This document shows, piece after piece, positions 17,704 to 26,094 of a stretch of 64,000 nt of DNA. Both the position numbers and the translations under genes were made by a program. The DNA lies in NCBI GenBank assembly GCA_018825785.1, contig JAHKAY010000007.1:35033-99032 (forward strand). The letters are read 5' to 3'. The notes under the pieces were generated by a model that was not told the origin of the DNA, ran no database searches, and saw nothing but the letters and a program-made list of their open reading frames with translations. The stretch comes from Chloroflexota bacterium. GTDB lineage: Bacteria > Chloroflexota > Dehalococcoidia > JACVQG01 > JAHKAY01. Every line of letters starts with the position of its first letter. Positions within the stretch are counted from its first letter, which is position 1.

Positions 17704-18676
17704 TCTTCTCCAAGGATAGCAGGTATAAAGGATATGTTCCAGAGGCCAGGTACTCCTCGGCTCTTGCCTCGGCAAGTTTGTACAGCCAGCGGCTACCCCA
17801 TAAGCTCTTGTCCTTTGACCCTGGCTCCCCGTTCGCCCTGGTTAAGAAGACCAGCGCCCGCGTCTACCTCGATGTGACGCACCTGTCCTGTGAAGACCTC
17901 CACCGCGTCTATAAGGCTGTTACAGCATGCAGGGAAGCTCTCGGGATTTCTCGGGGCAAGGGCAGGCCTAAGAGCAAGGATCTCACAAAGGCCATGCGGG
18001 CTGCCTTTATGGTGGATGAGATGGGGATGAGCCACGTCCAAGTAGGGGAAAAACCGGGATTCCCCGTGTACCGCGACGCGATAAGGTCGGCTTCGCCCCT
18101 GGTCAAAGGTGGAGGGTGTGGACTTCGTCCGGGGCACCGTCGCCATAACGCACCTGAAGGCCCGGATGAGGCTCCACCGCCTGAAATGCGGTGCCGGGCT
18201 GGGCAGGTGTGAGCTCAACAGAGTCGAGTTCGCCTACATCAAGTCCCAGCTTCAGCAGTCCCCTTCACTCAGGCGCAGATTGGATTTCCGCCCTTCGGCG
18301 AGAAGGCTGTCCCAGGACCACATCCGGGCCGTGGCGACGCACGGTCTCTCAGGCGCTGGGAGGGGGGTTTCAGCTTCGGCTGCGAGAGACAAGCGGTGTG
18401 GCTTGATGAAAGACACCAGGGCGGGCTGAGGCCTGGGCCATCAGGTGGGAAATCGCCGCATCGAGGCGACGGATGGCAATAAAGCCCGGGACGTGGGACC
18501 AGGGGTTCCTCCTGTGGCATAGGGCACAGGCATGGCTAGGAGCCGGGCTCAAACAGCGGGTCAGGATCGATTCGCAGGCAACGCTTCTTGTTTCAAGATG
18601 ATGCTTGACACCACACAGTCTTGGCTCTTGGCTGAAGTGGACAGAATGGTTTGCTGTTCTGGAGAAGCCTAGTTGT

Positions 18677-19087
18677 TCATTTCTCTGCGTTTACTGCTGC
18701 GCCTCCGAGCTGCTCTTCCTGTCGGCGATATTGACAACTGGCGCACAGGTCTTCGTTAGAAGATACCAGGCAGCATGTCCCCTCCTCTTTCCAGCAGAGT
18801 CTTGAACAGCCAGCATATTTAGAGCGGTGCATGCAAACTGGACAATCGTCTATGTGCCAACAGGGATAAAGCTGAAGAAAGTGGGAGATGGCTGGTAACT
18901 TCAGCCCTTTCTTCTGCAACCTCTGAATGAACTGCAATCGCTTCAGGTCGTTATCAGAATAGAACCGTTTGCCCTTTCTCCTCTGTGGCCGAATTATCCC
19001 GTGCCTTTCCCATACGCGGAGGGTCTCCCGATGCGCGTTCAGCAACTCTGAAACTATACCTATCGGATAAACCGGCCGATTCTGCAT
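18677..19087 (-). CDS. MerR-family transcriptional regulator with Cys-rich C-terminal extension
   Basis: N-terminal HTH YPIGIVSELLNAHRETLRVWERHGII...YSDNDLKRLQFIQRL is typical MerR. The C-terminal 50 aa has 9 Cys (CPVC...C..C..CC...C..C). Lies in a lower-GC region. Confidence 0.65.
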   Translation of the reverse strand: MQNRPVYPIGIVSELLNAHRETLRVWERHGIIRPQRRKGKRFYSDNDLKRLQFIQRLQKKGLKLPAISHFLQLYPCWHIDDCPVCMHRSKYAGCSRLCWKEEGTCCLVSSNEDLCASCQYRRQEEQLGGAAVNAEK

Positions 19088-19273
19088 GACCTCAAACTCT
19101 TCTCAATTATTGTAAAGAGACAATCTCAATTTGTCAATTGAAGTATCCGCGAGGCTCGAACAGGCCGTGCGGGGTACGAAGTCAGCCCCTGAGCGGCAAC
19201 TGGCTAGGAGAGGGGGTAGGAGTGGACCTCGCAGTATCGTCTCCCTCCTCTGCGGGAATTCCATATTCAAGCA

Positions 19274-19798
19274 TCAGTACATTTGCCAGCCTGCCAAAAG
19301 CCTCGCTGGGATGGGGGGCGGAGGCGGCTTGTCCGGCCCAAAGTGCTCAATGAGATACTCCCATAGGAGGTCCTGTTCCGCCCGCCTGCTGCCTACCCAC
19401 GGGGTCGTCGCCCATCCCACGAAGCCCGTGTCGTGGCGGGCGCGGGCACTCTCCCAGCTACTCCGGTCCTTCGCCGGCCCCGTCAGGATAAATAGCTGTA
19501 CGCCGTGACAGGAGGTGCATATCAAGAACAGGTCATCCCGCCCGGGGCCCGGCGGAAAGACCTGGGCGATATAAGCCTTCGCCTCTTCCTCAGGGCTTTG
19601 GGCCGGAGCCGGGGTAAGAGTTGAAACAGGGGTAGGAGTCGGCGTCCGGGTAGGTGTAGCTGTTGGGATAGGCGTGGGGGTTGGACTGGCAGTAGGTGCT
19701 GGCCTTGGGGTTGGGGTTGGGGTTTTGGCCCCCTTGCCACAGGCAGCCAGCAGCATCCCGCTGGTAAGCACCGCAACTAGAAACCACCGCCAATTCAC
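19274..19798 (-). CDS. Mono-heme c-type cytochrome lipoprotein with Pro/Thr-rich linker
   Basis: Signal peptide with lipobox LLAAC, (PTPT)n linker, a single CXXCH motif (CTSCH), and a poly-Pro PPPPP stretch near the C-terminus. Confidence 0.7.
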   Translation of the reverse strand: MNWRWFLVAVLTSGMLLAACGKGAKTPTPTPRPAPTASPTPTPIPTATPTRTPTPTPVSTLTPAPAQSPEEEAKAYIAQVFPPGPGRDDLFLICTSCHGVQLFILTGPAKDRSSWESARARHDTGFVGWATTPWVGSRRAEQDLLWEYLIEHFGPDKPPPPPIPARLLAGWQMY

Positions 19799-19820
19799 TC
19801 TTAGACCTCCGTGTCAAGCA

Positions 19821-20330
19821 TCAAATGTAACTTTGCCAACCTGCCAAAAGCCTCTGTGGCGGGGGCGGGGGAGGCGGCTTGTCGGGCCCAAAGTGCTGGA
19901 TGAGATACTCCCATATGGGGTCATATTCCGCCTGCCTGCCAAGCGACTGGGCCCCCTGCAGGCCGCCCGTGTCGTGGCGGTAACGGGTCATCTCCCACGC
20001 ACTCCGGTCCTTCAGCGGTCCCGCCAGGATAATTACCTGTATCCCGTGACAGACGGTGCACTTCAGGAACGCATCATCCCGCCCGGGGCCAGGCGGAAAG
20101 ACCCCGGCAAGATAGTCACGAACCTCCTGGTCAGAGCCTTGGGTAGGAGCAGTGGTAGGCGAAGCTGTCCCAGCGGGGGAAGGGGAAGGCTCCGCCACGG
20201 GCGAGGGACTAGGAGAAGGCCTCACGACGGGGGCTGGGCTGGCAGTTGGGGCCTTCACGCCTTTCGGACTGCATGCCCCCACCAGGACCCCGCTGGCGAG
20301 CCCTGCAGCCAGAAACCATCTCCACCACAC
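19821..20330 (-). CDS. Paralogous mono-heme c-type cytochrome lipoprotein
   Basis: CTVCH heme motif. The C-terminal ~100 aa are nearly colinear with the 19274-19798 product. GTG start at 20330 preceded by a GGGGGGAG RBS. Signal peptide VWWRWFLAAGLASGVLVGAC. The track ORF extends to 20465. Confidence 0.65.
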   Translation of the reverse strand: MWWRWFLAAGLASGVLVGACSPKGVKAPTASPAPVVRPSPSPSPVAEPSPSPAGTASPTTAPTQGSDQEVRDYLAGVFPPGPGRDDAFLKCTVCHGIQVIILAGPLKDRSAWEMTRYRHDTGGLQGAQSLGRQAEYDPIWEYLIQHFGPDKPPPPPPPQRLLAGWQSYI

Positions 20331-20494
20331 TCCACTCCCCCCTTTAGCCCAATACTCTTCTTCTGGTTCTTCCTGCTCCGGCACCCCTGGAGCTGGCTCA
20401 GGTATCCGCCCTTCCATCGAGCAAACGGGGACCCCCATCACCCTCTTCGGCTTCACCGACTCCACGTCCTCCCGTATCCCCTTTGATGCGTTTC

Positions 20495-20570
20495 ACTACC
20501 ATCATAGCTTGGTATCGCCCGCATGTCAATATCCCGTGTTAGGTCAGCTAAAAGGTATTATTCAGCCATC
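20495..20570 (-). promoter_or_regulatory. Promoter element copy A (TTGACA-N17-TATGAT with conserved upstream box) driving the cytochrome c gene pair
   Basis: Reverse complement of 20501-20529 is TTGACAtgcgggcgataccaagcTATGAT. About 65 bp are ~80% identical to 22015-22085. Confidence 0.6.
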
Positions 20571-20936
20571 CCTTCAAGCCTTCTCTTTTACCGGTGTAGA
20601 CCGTCAGCGGGGAGTGTTGCCGAACTCGACCTAGGGTGTGATAGGTGATATGACTAAGCGGTGGCTACCGCCGGGGCCAAGGCGAATGATCACCTTCTAG
20701 GCGAGATGCTCCGGCACCATAGTAGGCTCAGTGGACTACTGGTGAGAGAAGTAGGGCTGATGCCAAGTATGGCACCATAGCCAATTATGTGTTTCTTCAC
20801 CATGCTGGCATGGCAGCCTTTATTCCACTATTGTCATAGGGCTTGTTTCCTGTGAGCTTTCTGGAGCTGTCTTGGAGATTGCAGGAGAAGCGGAGGCTAT
20901 GTCTGGTCCCGGGCGATGGGGGAAGCAGGCTAGTTT

Positions 20937-21920
20937 CTATTCAAAACCTTCCAGGAATGCTTTTACATTCTTGCCCAGGACCTGCTGGTTGTAGCCCCCT
21001 TCCAGGACGGCAAACCTCTTGCCCCCCGAGTTTCTCTCGGCAGCCTCTTTAAGCAGCCTGCCAATTGTTGTGAAATCTTCAGTTTCCAATACTCCTGCTC
21101 CGCCCTCTTCCTTTGCCCCATCAAAGCCGGCCGATACGGCCAAGATATCGTAATCAGTTTTCCCTTTGAGAAAGTCTTCCAGGCTTTCCAGTTGTTGAGT
21201 TCTATCCTCTAACTCACTTGGCAAATCATAGAAGGTAACCCTTCCATCATCGCGAAATATGGCTTCTGTCCCATCTCCAGGATGCACATCAAAGTCCACA
21301 ATCAAGGCCCTCTCTATTTTCTTCTCATCAAGCAGTTTCGCGACCGCAATGGCGATATTATTGAGGTAGCAATGGCCATAAGAGGAATCAGCACTGGCAT
21401 GACTGCCTGGTGGCCTGATCAGAGCAAAAGTGACCTGTCCCTGCACCGCTAGCTCGGCAGCCAAGATTGCTCCCCCGGCTGCCAGGGGAGCAATCCTATA
21501 AAGCTCGCCCGTAAAGGGAGAAGCACCTCCAGCCGCACCGTGTGCGAGAACCTCGCCAGGGTCCAGAAAAGTGCGACCAATAAGCGACTGTGTATGAACT
21601 GCTCTAATATCTTCTTCTTTGGCTGGTTCGGGTTTAACGAATTCATAGAAGCCTTGAAGTTCCTGCAAGATGGCTTGAATTCGCCCTGCCTCGGCAGCCG
21701 GGTCGAAAGAATAGACCAGCAGATAATCTGGGTGAAAAATTACCTTGATTCCGGTTGCTGAAGGTGTCAAACCACCGGAGGCCCCGGCCTTTGGTGTCGG
21801 GGCAGGGGCTGCCTTTGCACTACAGGCGGCGGGCAAACTCAGGGCCAGCATCAAGGCCATTGCCCACAATAATCTATTCATAACTATACTTCGTTGATAA
21901 GCCAGCGGATGTTGTCCCAT
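20937..21920 (-). CDS. Secreted histone-deacetylase-like (arginase/deacetylase superfamily) protein with divergent active-site motifs
   Basis: Signal peptide, then IRPPGSHA (canonical RPPGHHA), GHCYLNNIAIA (canonical GFCYVNDI), DFDVHPGDGT (canonical DxDxHHGDG), and LEGGYN (GGY Tyr retained). Confidence 0.65.
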   Translation of the reverse strand: MGQHPLAYQRSIVMNRLLWAMALMLALSLPAACSAKAAPAPTPKAGASGGLTPSATGIKVIFHPDYLLVYSFDPAAEAGRIQAILQELQGFYEFVKPEPAKEEDIRAVHTQSLIGRTFLDPGEVLAHGAAGGASPFTGELYRIAPLAAGGAILAAELAVQGQVTFALIRPPGSHASADSSYGHCYLNNIAIAVAKLLDEKKIERALIVDFDVHPGDGTEAIFRDDGRVTFYDLPSELEDRTQQLESLEDFLKGKTDYDILAVSAGFDGAKEEGGAGVLETEDFTTIGRLLKEAAERNSGGKRFAVLEGGYNQQVLGKNVKAFLEGFE

Positions 21921-22014
21921 CCTCCTCCAGGAGGTGGGTGGTATCCGTGTAGATGACGGTGATATCCCCCCCTTTGTCGCCCATGAACACCCTTACCTCC
22001 CTCTGGTGGCCCCC

Positions 22015-22090
22015 AGCAGCATCATAGCTCAGTATCGCCCGTGTGTCAATACCTTGTGCCAGGTTAGTTAAAAAGTATTCTTGAGCACAC
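22015..22090 (-). promoter_or_regulatory. Promoter element copy B (TTGACA-N17-TATGAT with conserved upstream box) driving the HDAC-like gene
   Basis: Reverse complement of 22021-22049 is TTGACAcacgggcgatactgagcTATGAT. Paralogous to 20495-20570, including the upstream gtg..aggt.ag.taaaa.gtatt box. Confidence 0.6.
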
Positions 22091-22189
22091 CCCTTGCTTT
22101 CGTTGTCACGGAGAGATATAATGTAATCGGTGGACAAAGATGGTGGCGTCTATCATCGGGCGGGAACGCCTTGGCCCAGGAGGCCGCAC

Positions 22190-23968
22190 ATGAAGAGTCT
22201 AGCGAAGTGGGCAGGTTTCACCTCTATTGGCCTGCTCTTTCTGCTCCTGATTTACTCAGTTGTTCACACGGGTGCTCCAACGAGCCCTTCGAGCCCTCCC
22301 GGGCTTGCCGAAGCCGAAGTGCCCGCGCCGGTTCCAGGAGACGAAGCGCCTACGCCGGTTATATCTGACGTTTCTGAACGGCGCTCCTTTATGTATCCAG
22401 AGGGCGTAACTACATCGGCTGGTGGCGCAATTTGGATTACCGCTACCAATAATGAAGTTGTCAGGTTGCGCTCAGATAACCCTGACGTAGAGCTAAGGTT
22501 CGGCTCTCAGGGCTCGGGTGATGGCCAGTTCAACAGCCCGTTTGGCATTGTCGTTGATTCTTCGGGCGATGTCTACGTTGCAGACACTTCCAATCATCGC
22601 ATCCAGAAGTTCACCAGTTCAGGGGGGTTCATCACCAAGTGGGGCTCTCCAGGTTCCGGTGACGGTGAGGGCCAGCCCGCCTACCCGTGGAGCATCGCGG
22701 TTGACCCATCGGGCAATGTCTATGTTGCCGACGTTTTCAGTCATCAAATTCAGAAGTTGACCAGTTCGATGGAGCCCATCACCAAGTGGGGCTCTTTGGG
22801 TTCTGGTGACGGCGAGCTCAACGATCCGCGTGCCGTCGCGGTTGATTCTTCGGGCAACGTCTACATCGCGGATAGTTCCAATAATCGCATCCAGAAGTTC
22901 ACCAGTTCAGGGGAGTTCATCACCAAATGGGGCTCCGCGGGTTCCGGTAGTGGCCAGTTCAACCTTCCAGCGGGTTTGGCGGTTGATTCTTCGGGCAATG
23001 TGTATGTTGCCGATACTTTCAACAATCGCATCCAGAAGTTCACCAGTTCAGGGGAGTTCATCACCAAGTGGGGTTCTAGGGGTTCTGGTGACGGCGAGCT
23101 CAACGGTCCGCGTGGCATGGCGGTTGATTCTTCGGGCAATATCTACGCTACGGATACTTCCAATAATCGCATACAGAAGTTCACCAGTTCAGGGGAGTTC
23201 ATCACCAAGTGGGGCTCTACGGGTTCTGGTGACGGCCAGTTCATAGGCCCGTTCGGCGTTGCAGTTGATTCCTCCGACAATATCTATGTTGCCGAGGTGA
23301 GCAATAATCGCATTCAGAAGTTCACCAGTTCAGGGGGGTTCATCACCAAGTGGGGCTCTCCGGGTTCCAGTGACGGCCAGTTCAGGGGCGCAACGGGCGT
23401 GGCGGTTGATGCCTCCGGCAATGTCTATGTTGCCGACTATTTGAATAATCGCATCCAGAAGTTCACCAGTTCAGGGGGGTTCATCACCAAGCGGGGTTCT
23501 TATGGCAGCAGGGAGGGCGAGCTCAACCACCCAATGGGCTTGGCGGTTGATGCCTCAGGCAATGTCTATGTTGCCGATAGGGAGAATCATCGCATACAGA
23601 AGTTCACCAGTTCAGGGGAGTTCATCGCCAAGTGGGGTTCTATGGGTGAGGGTGACGGCGAGTTCAACCATCCAATGGGCGTTGCGGTTGATGCCTCCGG
23701 CAATGTCTATGTTGCCGATAGCTGCAATAATCGCATCCAGAAGTTCACCAGTTCAGGGGGGTTCATCGCCATCTGGGGCTCCACGGGTTTTGATTACGCC
23801 CAGTTCCTGAATCCACGGGGCGTGGCGATTGATGCCTCCGGCAATGTCTATGTTGCCGATTGGGAAAATAGGCGCGTCCAGGAGTTCACCAGTTCAGGGG
23901 TGTTCATCACCCAGTGGGGCACCCCGTTCACTATTAGCGAACTCTATAGCCTAGGTCTAATCCAGTAA
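22190..23968 (+). CDS. Secreted NHL-repeat beta-propeller protein (~11 repeats)
   Basis: ATG at 22190 after AGGAGG; signal/TM segment; repeated unit NNRIQKFTSSGEFITKWGS.GSGDGQF..P.GVAVDSSGNVYVAD is a typical NHL repeat. Confidence 0.8.
   Translation: MKSLAKWAGFTSIGLLFLLLIYSVVHTGAPTSPSSPPGLAEAEVPAPVPGDEAPTPVISDVSERRSFMYPEGVTTSAGGAIWITATNNEVVRLRSDNPDVELRFGSQGSGDGQFNSPFGIVVDSSGDVYVADTSNHRIQKFTSSGGFITKWGSPGSGDGEGQPAYPWSIAVDPSGNVYVADVFSHQIQKLTSSMEPITKWGSLGSGDGELNDPRAVAVDSSGNVYIADSSNNRIQKFTSSGEFITKWGSAGSGSGQFNLPAGLAVDSSGNVYVADTFNNRIQKFTSSGEFITKWGSRGSGDGELNGPRGMAVDSSGNIYATDTSNNRIQKFTSSGEFITKWGSTGSGDGQFIGPFGVAVDSSDNIYVAEVSNNRIQKFTSSGGFITKWGSPGSSDGQFRGATGVAVDASGNVYVADYLNNRIQKFTSSGGFITKRGSYGSREGELNHPMGLAVDASGNVYVADRENHRIQKFTSSGEFIAKWGSMGEGDGEFNHPMGVAVDASGNVYVADSCNNRIQKFTSSGGFIAIWGSTGFDYAQFLNPRGVAIDASGNVYVADWENRRVQEFTSSGVFITQWGTPFTISELYSLGLIQ
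22560..23900 (+). repeat. Approximately 126-bp in-frame tandem repeats (NHL repeat units) with high DNA-level identity
   Basis: Recurrent strings such as aatcgcatccagaagttcaccagttcagggg(a/g)gttcatcaccaagtggggctct at roughly 126-bp spacing. Confidence 0.8.
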
Positions 23969-24011
23969 CATGAGCTCGGCGGGCGTCGCACGGGCGAAAA
24001 AGGAGAGTGAA

Positions 24012-25550
24012 ATGCGCCGGACACTATTGCGAACTGCGTTTACATTGGCCTTGTTCCTCTCGATGGTGACGTGTGGAGCACCCCAAGCTACCCCAACCCC
24101 TGCTGTGTCACCTGCGCCAACCCCCACTTCTGCACCCGGACCAATCACAGTTCCTAAAGCTGTCGCAATCCCCGTAAGCGTCGTCTGGGCCCGCCAGTTC
24201 GGCACACCGGATGAAGACCGCGCCCAGGGCGTGGCGCTGGACAGCGCACGGAACATCTACATCGCGGGCGATACCCTTGGTAGCCTGCCAGGCCAGACCT
24301 CAGCGGGGAGCTGGGATACCTTCGTGCGCAAGTATGACCCCAATGGCAAGGAGATATGGACCCGCCAGTTCGGCACACCGGATGAAGACCGCGCCCAGGG
24401 CGTGGCGCTGGACAGCGCAGGGAACTTCTACATTGTGGGCGAGACAGGTGGGAGCCTGCCGGGGCAGGCATCGGCAGGCAAGTCGGACGCCTTTGTGCGC
24501 AAGTATGACCCCAATGGCAAGGAGATATGGACCCGCCAGTTCGGCACATCCGATGTAGACACGGCCGCGGGTGTGGCGGTGGACAGCGCAGGGAACATCT
24601 ACATCGTGGGCGAGACAGGTGGGAGCCTGCCGGGGCAGGCATCGGCAGGCAAGTCGGACGCCTTCGTGCGCAAGTATGACCCCAATGGCAAGGAGATATG
24701 GACCCGCCAGTTCGGCACATCCGATGTGGACACGGCCGCGGGTGTGGCGGTGGACAGCACAGGGAACTTCTACATTGTGGGCGATACCCTTGGTAGCCTG
24801 CCAGGCCAGACCTCAGCGGGCAGCTACGACGCCTTCGTGCGCAAGTATGACCCCAATGGCAAGGAGATATGGACCCGCCAGTTCGGCACACCGCTCCCCG
24901 ATGTAGACACGGCCACGGGTGTAGCGGTGGACAGCACAGGGAACGTCTACATCGCGGGCACTGTGTATGGGAGCCTGCCCCGGCAGGCCGCGTTGGGCAT
25001 GTGGGATGCCTTTGTGCGCAAGTATGACCCTGATGGCAAGGAGATATGGACCCGCCAGTTCGGCAGCTCGGTCACGGATAATGCCCGGGGCGTGGCGCTG
25101 GACAGCGCAGGGAACATCTACATCGCGGGCGATACAAATGGGACCCTGCGGGGGCAGGCCTCGGCGGGGAAAACGGACGCTATTCTGCTTCTGGCAGGAA
25201 CGAGTCCTGCTCCGAGTGTGCCTCTGGATCCTTCGGACACAACAGCGCCTGTGGTTACCTGGGTCGGGTATTTCGGACGCGAATGGGAAACTGCAAGCAT
25301 TGCTTGGAAGACCAACGAGCCAACTATCGGCCGAGTAGAATATTGCATATGGAATGGCCCGACCCCCGAATATGAGATGATTACTGATTGGACTGAGGAG
25401 CCAGATACCACCGGCGCTGTTACCCTGACAGAGCTTGAATGGTGGGTCACGTATCAGTACAGAGTGAGGGTGAAAGACGCTGGAGGAAACGAAGCAGTAT
25501 CCGAAAATAAGAGTTTCTACACTTACATCCACGGATTCGTGAACCCCTAG
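24012..25550 (+). CDS. Secreted lipoprotein with ~7 SBBP-type beta-propeller repeats and a C-terminal FN3/PAP-N-like domain
   Basis: ATG 24012 after AAAGGAGAG; lipobox LSMVTCG; repeated ~60-aa unit WTRQFGT.D.D.A.GVA.DS.GN.YI.G.T.GSLPGQ.SAG..DAFVRKYDPNGKEI; C-terminal WNGPTPEYEM...YQYRVRVKDAGGNE. Confidence 0.75.
   Translation: MRRTLLRTAFTLALFLSMVTCGAPQATPTPAVSPAPTPTSAPGPITVPKAVAIPVSVVWARQFGTPDEDRAQGVALDSARNIYIAGDTLGSLPGQTSAGSWDTFVRKYDPNGKEIWTRQFGTPDEDRAQGVALDSAGNFYIVGETGGSLPGQASAGKSDAFVRKYDPNGKEIWTRQFGTSDVDTAAGVAVDSAGNIYIVGETGGSLPGQASAGKSDAFVRKYDPNGKEIWTRQFGTSDVDTAAGVAVDSTGNFYIVGDTLGSLPGQTSAGSYDAFVRKYDPNGKEIWTRQFGTPLPDVDTATGVAVDSTGNVYIAGTVYGSLPRQAALGMWDAFVRKYDPDGKEIWTRQFGSSVTDNARGVALDSAGNIYIAGDTNGTLRGQASAGKTDAILLLAGTSPAPSVPLDPSDTTAPVVTWVGYFGREWETASIAWKTNEPTIGRVEYCIWNGPTPEYEMITDWTEEPDTTGAVTLTELEWWVTYQYRVRVKDAGGNEAVSENKSFYTYIHGFVNP
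24170..25150 (+). repeat. Approximately 180-bp in-frame tandem repeats (SBBP units), several copies near-identical at DNA level
   Basis: For example gtgcgcaagtatgaccccaatggcaaggagatatggacccgccagttcggcaca recurs 6 times. Confidence 0.8.
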
Positions 25551-25737
25551 CAGGGTGTTGAAAAAGTCCGACTTCTGTTCGCTCCAGCTTTGGCCGACTG
25601 AGGAGCGCTGAATTTGGCTGCTGAGAGGGGCTCCCAACCCCAGCAGTGGGTTGGGAGCCCCTTGCTGTTGGGGGTCGGGGGCCCCCTTTTTGAGCCTCTA
25701 GGATTCGCCCTTGATGTTGACGTAGGTAGCTGGCTTG

Positions 25738-26094
25738 TCAGCGAAGCCGCAGGAGCGCGTAGAGCAGCAGGGTCAGGGATACCCCTGCCACACCGGCCAT
25801 CAGGTCATTGAAAGACGAGGACCGATAGGGGAGGAGCTTCTGGGCAGCCTCTGAGGACACTGCCAGGAAAAGCCCGAATATCAGCCCGAACAGGATTCGC
25901 ATTCTCATGGGTTTAAGGAAGTCGGCGCTATAGGCTGCCACGAGGCCGGTAATCCCAAAAAGACCAAAATGGGCAACCTTATCCCAGTGGCTGAAGGCTC
26001 CAGCGGTGGGCAAGCCAACATCTCCGACAGGGCCAAGGAGCAGCCCGAGAAGGAAGAGAGTCCACAGGCCAAGGAGGACCATCTTTCGTTTCAT
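25738..26094 (-). CDS. VanZ-like family membrane protein
   Basis: MKRKMVLLGLWTLFLLGLLLGP...WDKVAHFGLFGITGLV...; ATG at 26094 overlaps the metF stop (ATGA). The track ORF has a spurious 71-codon 5' extension. Confidence 0.65.
   Translation of the reverse strand: MKRKMVLLGLWTLFLLGLLLGPVGDVGLPTAGAFSHWDKVAHFGLFGITGLVAAYSADFLKPMRMRILFGLIFGLFLAVSSEAAQKLLPYRSSSFNDLMAGVAGVSLTLLLYALLRLR

Follow-up and report, generated by a model that had tools for sequence, protein, structure and literature searches.

Two copies of a predicted sigma-70-type promoter region on either side of an HDAC-like gene in a Chloroflexota genome

A 64,000-nucleotide (nt) stretch of contig JAHKAY010000007.1 from an uncultured Chloroflexota bacterium (assembly GCA_018825785.1; hereafter, the window) contains two copies of one predicted promoter region, here called A and B, on either side of a gene for an HDAC-like exported lipoprotein. 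Both copies are on the minus strand: copy B points at the HDAC-like gene and copy A at two tandem genes for cytochrome c-like lipoproteins. It is reasonably probable that A and B are paralogous copies of a single sigma-70 (SigA)-type promoter region, that copy A re-supplies the cytochrome genes, and that a conserved module upstream of the -35 hexamer enhances or coordinates transcription from both. Along the minus strand the order is copy B, the HDAC-like gene, a 470-bp spacer with copy A, the two CxxCH lipoprotein genes, the promoter and coding sequence of a MerR-family regulator, and RecF (Table 1). Loci from relatives, several of them located by protein look-ups, were compared with the window and are designated L002 to L043.

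The repeated promoter region and its upstream module

The two copies form a direct repeat. A repeat search of the window paired 20479-20566 with 21999-22086 in direct orientation, and a blastn comparison of the spacer with the window gave 78.9% identity over 76 nt (E = 4e-12). In an ungapped alignment, copies A and B are the same at 57 of 75 positions and the best 50-nt window reaches 39/50 (78%); their divergence is 21-24%. An earlier sequence-only reading of this DNA had described the segments as about 80% identical; the repeat and its coordinates were borne out to within a few bases, and the value was slightly generous, the measured identity being 76-79%. The likeness stops about 25 nt past the -10 hexamer. 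It is not confined to the -35 and -10 hexamers: the copies also agree at 13 of the 17 spacer positions and at 25 of the 35 positions upstream of the -35, where unrelated consensus promoters compared in the same register agreed at 2-5 of 17 and 5-11 of 35. Two patterns were built from the bases common to A and B, to represent the core promoter and the upstream box; each matched exactly twice in the window, with 0.00 and 0.02 matches, respectively, in shuffled sequences. The conserved upstream box of the sequence-only reading is accordingly real. No third copy was found in the 64-kb window by scans with a profile hidden Markov model (HMM) and a position weight matrix (PWM). Both copies are also present in independent assemblies of the same or sister genomes, L006 (GCA_043814405.1, 99-100% identical to the window) and L041, and the repeat is therefore not an assembly artefact.

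Each copy contains TTGACA-N17-TATGAT on the minus strand, as had been read from the sequence: in copy B at 22049-22021 (-35 at 22049-22044, -10 at 22026-22021) and in copy A at 20529-20501 (-35 at 20529-20524, -10 at 20506-20501). Both match the sigma-70 consensus at 11 of 12 hexamer positions with a 17-nt spacer, and are near-consensus sigma-70 (SigA)-type promoters whose activity and start sites are predicted. Sites of this 11/12 type are rare, with only four in the window against 0.04 in shuffled sequences, and three of the four fall in one 3-kb cluster. The sole 11/12 promoter outside the cluster, TTGACA-N17-TATGAT at 38016-37988 (minus strand), lacks the upstream module. The -10 of copy B ends at 22021 and the HDAC-like gene starts at 21920 or 21881, which places the copy at -95 to -178 from ATG 21920. 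The -10 of copy A ends at 20501, and a leader of about 165 nt would separate it from a cytochrome start at GTG 20330; the copy lies at -167 to -244 from this codon, or at -32 to -109 from a spurious start at 20465. Three further candidates were examined and rejected. A sigma-54 reading of TGGCAC in copy B was discarded by eye, the motif not being in copy A and the -12 element being wrong; the frame of an upstream open reading frame (ORF) in the copy B leader is not kept in L002 and L003, which have one G fewer (by eye); and the promoter of the MerR gene, considered as a third copy, has only the hexamers in common with A and B.

The upstream module comprises the 35 nt abutting the -35 TTGACA, with an ACCT 12-15 nt before TTGACA and the consensus T.AA.A..A...TT.A..T.ACCT...A.....T. 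(Table 1). These 35 nt are 63-66% A+T in copies A and B; at the other two consensus promoters in the window the figure is 37-49%. The module recurs in two diverged contexts. In L005, whose HDAC protein is 76% identical in amino acid (aa) sequence, a MerR gene is followed by AATAATATTGTTGAACTAACCTGCAACATCGTA-TTGACA-N17-TATAAT and then by the HDAC gene; the module matches that of copy B at 26 of 35 positions and the spacer has diverged (8/17). In L039, whose regulator is 80% identical (aa), a TTGACA-N17-TATGAT promoter divergent from the MerR gene precedes an unrelated gene for a 214-aa lipoprotein. The bases upstream of it agree in register with those of A, B and L005 at 17-22 of 35 positions, against 5-11 of 35 for control promoters, and its spacer is unrelated. 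L039 also contains a truncated half-module adjoining a 3' HDAC fragment. Across the four contexts (A, B, L005 and L039), 15 of the 35 module positions are invariant, ACCT among them. It is plausible that the module is a functional cis-element, conserved beyond recent shared ancestry, and its recurrence in L005 and L039 is the best evidence for this.

A gene relic and an unstable spacer beside copy A

Copy A ends about 25 nt before the 3' relic of an MqsA/YgiT-like zinc-ribbon gene, of which only the last ~38 codons are left in the window, L041 and L036/L037. In L042 and L038 an intact MqsA/YgiT-like gene (800-1132 in L042) lies directly upstream of the cytochrome gene, and both loci lack the HDAC gene and any promoter copy; a MerR gene follows the cytochrome gene in L042, and none is visible in L038. 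Because copy A is located at a rearrangement junction beside the relic, it is not the ancestral cytochrome promoter; it looks like a captured or duplicated one. Campbell-type integration via a resident cytochrome promoter was considered and rejected, as the ancestral-type loci L042 and L038 have the intact gene, not a module-bearing promoter, at the upstream position.

The stop codon of the relic is present in L041, and the window has TGG at that codon. The relic is therefore fused in frame with the gene that follows, and the cytochrome ORF is falsely extended to 20465: the 214-aa ORF at 19821-20465 (minus strand) is a fusion artefact, of which the first ~38 codons are relic. Judging from an alignment of the family and from a Shine-Dalgarno sequence, GGGGGAG, the cytochrome gene likely starts at GTG 20330, not at 20465. 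The sequence-only reading had the two promoter copies drive the cytochrome c pair and the HDAC-like gene; it was right about their orientation, but copy A was not the original promoter of the cytochrome genes and the ORF probably begins about 135 nt further down.

The spacer between the HDAC stop codon and the relic, which holds copy A, varies in length from locus to locus (Table 1). The sub-block 20623-20908 is missing from L036/L037, and L002 and L041 have an extra ~300 bp at window position 20657/20658 (L002 1537-1835; L041 4917-5215). Imperfect direct repeats of 10 nt (ACCGCCCGTA / ACAGCCCGTA) flank this block, in which a 46-aa ORF is called. The indel junctions have only imperfect direct repeats of 3-10 nt, and a search of 20440-20960 and of the L002 spacer for terminal inverted repeats revealed none. 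Rfam gave no gathering-score match in the window, and only a spurious snoRNA match in 18500-22300 at up to E = 5; RNA structure in the spacer is marginal, with z-scores of -1.95 (minus strand) and +0.24 (plus strand). Among the relatives, orthologous DNA has diverged by only 8-9%, as against the 21-24% that separates A from B, and copy A is therefore not a recent copy of the resident copy B.

The HDAC gene, with a GC content of 51% compared with 63% for the window, looks like a cassette. Its contexts were compared in L004 and L005, where the HDAC genes are 99.7% identical and the upstream sequences, beginning 15 nt before the ATG, are unrelated. Upstream of HDAC (L004 1265 / L005 442), L004 has an SBBP gene, and L005 the MerR gene and the module-bearing promoter. 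This contrast appears to indicate recent swapping of promoter or context, or else a chimeric contig.

In the proposed sequence of events, copy B would be the promoter of the HDAC-like lipoprotein gene. DNA bearing this gene would have inserted into the MqsA/YgiT-like gene, parting the cytochrome gene or genes from the ancestral upstream gene. Copy A, duplicated or captured, would now transcribe the cytochrome c-like lipoprotein gene or genes, its transcript crossing the relic within the leader before reaching GTG 20330; in this way it probably re-supplies transcription to genes that had been cut off from their old upstream gene. The module would raise or coordinate promoter activity, either by contact with the C-terminal domain of the RNA polymerase alpha subunit (alpha-CTD) or via some activator, and the flanked genes, all of which encode exported lipoproteins, might be expressed alike through it. 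Co-regulation by one factor, as suggested by the sequence-only reading, is plausible, given that the module is also kept in a relative at a further promoter unrelated to these, though unproven.

Several observations weigh against this account. Close orthologues show no significant difference in conservation in favour of the module over the flanking non-coding DNA (5/140 versus 51/861 substitutions), L036 has ACAT for ACCT in the module, and the -35 of copy A in L041 is TTGACG. The case for functional constraint on the module comes only from the two diverged instances, L005 and L039. As judged by eye, the module also fits the E. coli UP-element consensus poorly. The history of the duplication itself may be read in two ways: either the duplication is old and copy A was lost in L003, or copy A came from a diverged donor copy.

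Alternative explanations and neighbouring genes

Copy A lies within an indel that is missing from a 91%-identical relative (L003), in a rearrangement-prone region with integrase remnants, and a similar module precedes an unrelated gene in L039. These features, together with an A-B divergence that exceeds orthologous divergence and would be consistent with a third donor copy elsewhere, might be taken to mean that the repeat is part of a dispersed mobile promoter element, such as a miniature inverted-repeat transposable element (MITE), a Correia-like element or a derivative of an insertion sequence (IS), inserted upstream of several genes. This is very unlikely. Only two copies were found in 64 kb, and HMM and PWM scans found none more in ~325 kb of sequence from relatives and from loci matched in the pattern scans; the spacer lacks terminal inverted repeats and, by eye, the L003/window junction shows no target-site duplication. 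Neither of two patterns matched in viral contigs, and there was no match in plasmid and phage collections. Scans of genomes and metagenome contigs with ARCTRACCTNNNACNNNNNTATTGACA gave 11 and 14 matches, as expected by chance only, none of them labelled Chloroflexota (the metagenome contigs being unlabelled) and none with a correctly spaced -10; the lineage was not represented, both the window genome and L003 being missed, so these scans are uninformative on it. Of the 'duplicated mobile promoter' of the sequence-only reading, the duplication stands, and mobility of the transposon or MITE type is not supported. A different reading takes the repeat as a neutral by-product of segmental rearrangement, in which only copy B works, copy A is a remnant in decay and transcription reaches the cytochrome genes by read-through from B. 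In L003 the relic and the cytochrome gene come directly after the HDAC gene and copy A is missing, which makes operon-style expression from B viable in a close relative, and no intrinsic terminator was detected between the HDAC gene and copy A. The mutated -35 in L041 and the lack of significant excess conservation of the module would fit as well. However, in the window, L006 and L036/L037 the TTGACA, the 17-nt spacing and the TATGAT of copy A are all unaltered, for all its divergence from B. Hexamers that are intact at more than 20% divergence make drifting DNA unlikely, and this reading is considered improbable.

The module could alternatively be the operator of the neighbouring MerR/HspR-like regulator, with the HDAC-like, cytochrome c-like and other lipoprotein genes forming a small redox- or metal-responsive regulon. 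A MerR-like gene is found within 3 kb of every module that could be viewed with its flanks (in the window, L041, L036, L005, where it is immediately upstream, and L039, where it is divergent). The regulator family is small, with 86 matches, mostly metagenomic and with few named sources (including Chloroflexota and Calderihabitans), and has a conserved length of 136 aa; the module of copy B, moreover, sits between two divergent promoters, a typical position for a regulator site. Against this, the comparison with MerR motifs that the sequence-only reading had proposed was negative. The 17-nt spacer contrasts with the 19-20 nt of MerR-activated promoters, there is no dyad in the spacer, nor any of at least 6 nt conserved among the elements, and the HspR-associated inverted repeat (HAIR, CTTGAGT-N7-ACTCAAG) had no match with up to three mismatches in 20440-20640 or 21960-22160, its three matches in the window being the chance expectation. 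The regulator's own promoter lacks the module, and in L042 and L043 the regulator adjoins the cytochrome gene and the module is absent. In L041-L043 a degenerate integrase gene and a primase gene accompany the regulator, so that the linkage may be one of shared synteny or mobility. An operator of this kind is thus unlikely. The more specific proposal, that the module is the site of the 136-aa HspR-like MerR protein with its nine-cysteine C-terminal half, acting upstream of the -35 to control a mobile lipoprotein regulon, is quite unlikely. If true, it would describe a horizontally mobile regulon in uncultured Chloroflexota, comprising a monohaem cytochrome c-like protein, an extracytoplasmic HDAC-family deacetylase and a protein of unknown function, which new genes join by promoter capture.

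The HDAC-like protein belongs to PF00850, and the closest named protein is from a Chloroflexota metagenome-assembled genome. L036 has a single cytochrome gene, orthologous to gene 2 of the window, and gene 1 is without counterpart there. The CxxCH lipoprotein family is very small (only 11 matches in 5.8 billion proteins) and is characterised by an invariant CxxCHG, a lipobox, a Thr/Pro-rich linker and a C-terminal PPPPP. The CxxCH proteins have no Pfam match; in view of the family features, 'cytochrome c-like' is a reasonable, if unproven, label.

The N-terminal domain of the MerR-family regulator is closest to HspR, with a score below the cut-off. Its gene has a promoter of its own, TTGACA-N17-TACAAT at 19137-19109 (minus strand). 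Within the region of this promoter (19088-19140, minus strand) are three repeats of AATTGA(C/G)A and a mini-palindrome, GAGA-TTG-TCTC; the promoter is conserved in L039 and may be an autoregulatory site. On the plus strand, 18106-18601 shares 97% identity with the 3' portion of a degenerate Phage_integrase ORF found in L041, L042 and L043 (L041 7588-8706), which adjoins an AEP-TOTE primase gene in the same loci. The block of MerR gene and integrase is 97% identical, compared with ~92% for its neighbours. The MerR-like gene and the integrase remnant look like a decayed integrative element; with the regulator beside the degenerate integrase and AEP primase in L041-L043 and an integrase remnant in the window, the linkage of regulator and module may therefore reflect such an element.

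The GC content of 18000-26000 is 52-60%, compared with ~63-65% on both sides; that of the HDAC-like gene is 51% and that of the NHL gene 55%. This, with the rearranged gene orders of relatives, suggests that the DNA between RecF and VanZ/MTHFR is a horizontally acquired mosaic island. The sequence-only reading had noted a lower GC content in the intergenic stretches on either side of the HDAC-like gene than in their surroundings. They are indeed lower (52%) than the window and the cytochrome gene (64%), but not lower than the HDAC-like gene between them. Beyond copy B, 22130-25550 (plus strand) holds two large beta-propeller repeat genes, one of NHL type (141-nt DNA repeats, 8-10 copies) and one of SBBP type. 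The number of repeats is unequal in the window and L006, and the alignment with L006 breaks between window positions 23926 and 24528.

Table 1. Features of the locus in window coordinates, and the HDAC-cytochrome spacer in the window and related loci
Feature	Position or length	Strand	Remarks
MerR-family gene	18677..19087	-	HspR-like N-terminal domain, Cys-rich C-terminal half
Cytochrome c-like lipoprotein gene 1	19274..19798	-	Tandem paralogue of gene 2 (76-84% nt identity)
Cytochrome c-like lipoprotein gene 2	19821..20330	-	CTVCHG motif; likely start GTG 20330 after GGGGGAG
Relic of MqsA/YgiT-like zinc-ribbon gene	20349..20472	-	3' relic, last ~38 codons
Unstable spacer, HDAC stop to relic	20473..20920	-	Holds copy A
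Promoter copy A	20497..20574	-	nhmmer 20574-20497, E = 2e-23
Upstream module of copy A	20530..20564	-	TGAATAATACCTTTTAGCTGACCTAACACGGGATA
HDAC-like (PF00850) exported/lipoprotein gene	20937..21881	-	Between A and B; 51% GC; signal/lipobox N-terminus; alternative start ATG 21920
Promoter copy B	22015..22098	-	Whole repeated segment, about -85 to +7/+25; nhmmer 22098-22015, E = 2e-25
Upstream module of copy B	22050..22084	-	TCAAGAATACTTTTTAACTAACCTGGCACAAGGTA; 66% A+T; between HDAC -35 and candidate divergent NHL promoter
Candidate divergent promoter, NHL-repeat gene	22094..22122	+	TTGCTT-N17-TATAAT; gene start likely ATG 22190; by eye, below scan threshold
Spacer in L003	about 33 nt		Copy A absent; HDAC stop joined directly to relic
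Spacer in L036/L037	~196 nt		Copy A present
Spacer in the window	~470 nt		Copy A present
Spacer in L002/L041	~770 nt		Copy A present

Comparison with known promoter systems

The locus resembles MerR/HspR-HAIR systems in the linkage of its promoters to a MerR-family gene whose DNA-binding domain is HspR-like. It differs from them in that the spacer is 17 nt long, there is no palindrome in the spacer or module and no HAIR, and the conserved block lies upstream of the -35 and not between the hexamers. In a UP element, the alpha-CTD of RNA polymerase makes contact with A/T-rich DNA at about -40 to -60. The near-consensus -35 and -10, the 17-nt spacer and the A/T-rich upstream tract, here within a 63% GC genome, resemble strong sigma-70 promoters with such an element (rrnB P1 type); in contrast to a UP element, the tract has its centre further from the -35, at about -68 to -50, and includes the invariant ACCT.

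The closest likeness is to the putative mobile promoters (PMPs), or promoter reuse, of Matus-Garcia, Nijveen and van Passel (2012), for which the commentary on that work (PMC3575422) gives a threshold of 80% identity over 50 nt. As described there, PMPs are highly similar stretches of non-coding DNA, including the -35, upstream of two non-paralogous genes and without a recognisable IS, and are explained by the duplication or capture of a promoter, with transcription rewired as a result. The genes downstream of A and B are likewise non-paralogous, one encoding the HDAC-like PF00850 protein and the other a CxxCH lipoprotein. At 76-79% identity the pair narrowly misses the threshold given in the commentary. 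For the position criterion reported there, -150 to -50 from the translation start, the outcome for A and B depends on the start codon chosen. The present copies differ from PMPs, moreover, in being only 1.5 kb apart, as direct repeats around one gene, and the relic at the junction is known here from comparative loci, a detail that the PMP survey does not give. The same commentary cites the cit amplification in the E. coli long-term evolution experiment, in which promoter capture placed a promoter copy before genes otherwise without a transcription signal. The present event is instead ancient, as judged from metagenomic relatives, and no tandem amplification of a downstream gene with its promoter was seen.

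The locus is a clean natural case of promoter reuse, with intermediate and alternative states kept in environmental relatives. It also corrects a local annotation in which the cytochrome ORF had been fused to the relic, and flags a lineage-specific upstream motif as a candidate cis-regulatory element. Set against these systems, the repeat is an ordinary promoter duplication, a new instance of a known event accompanied by that motif, and not a new type of element or mechanism.

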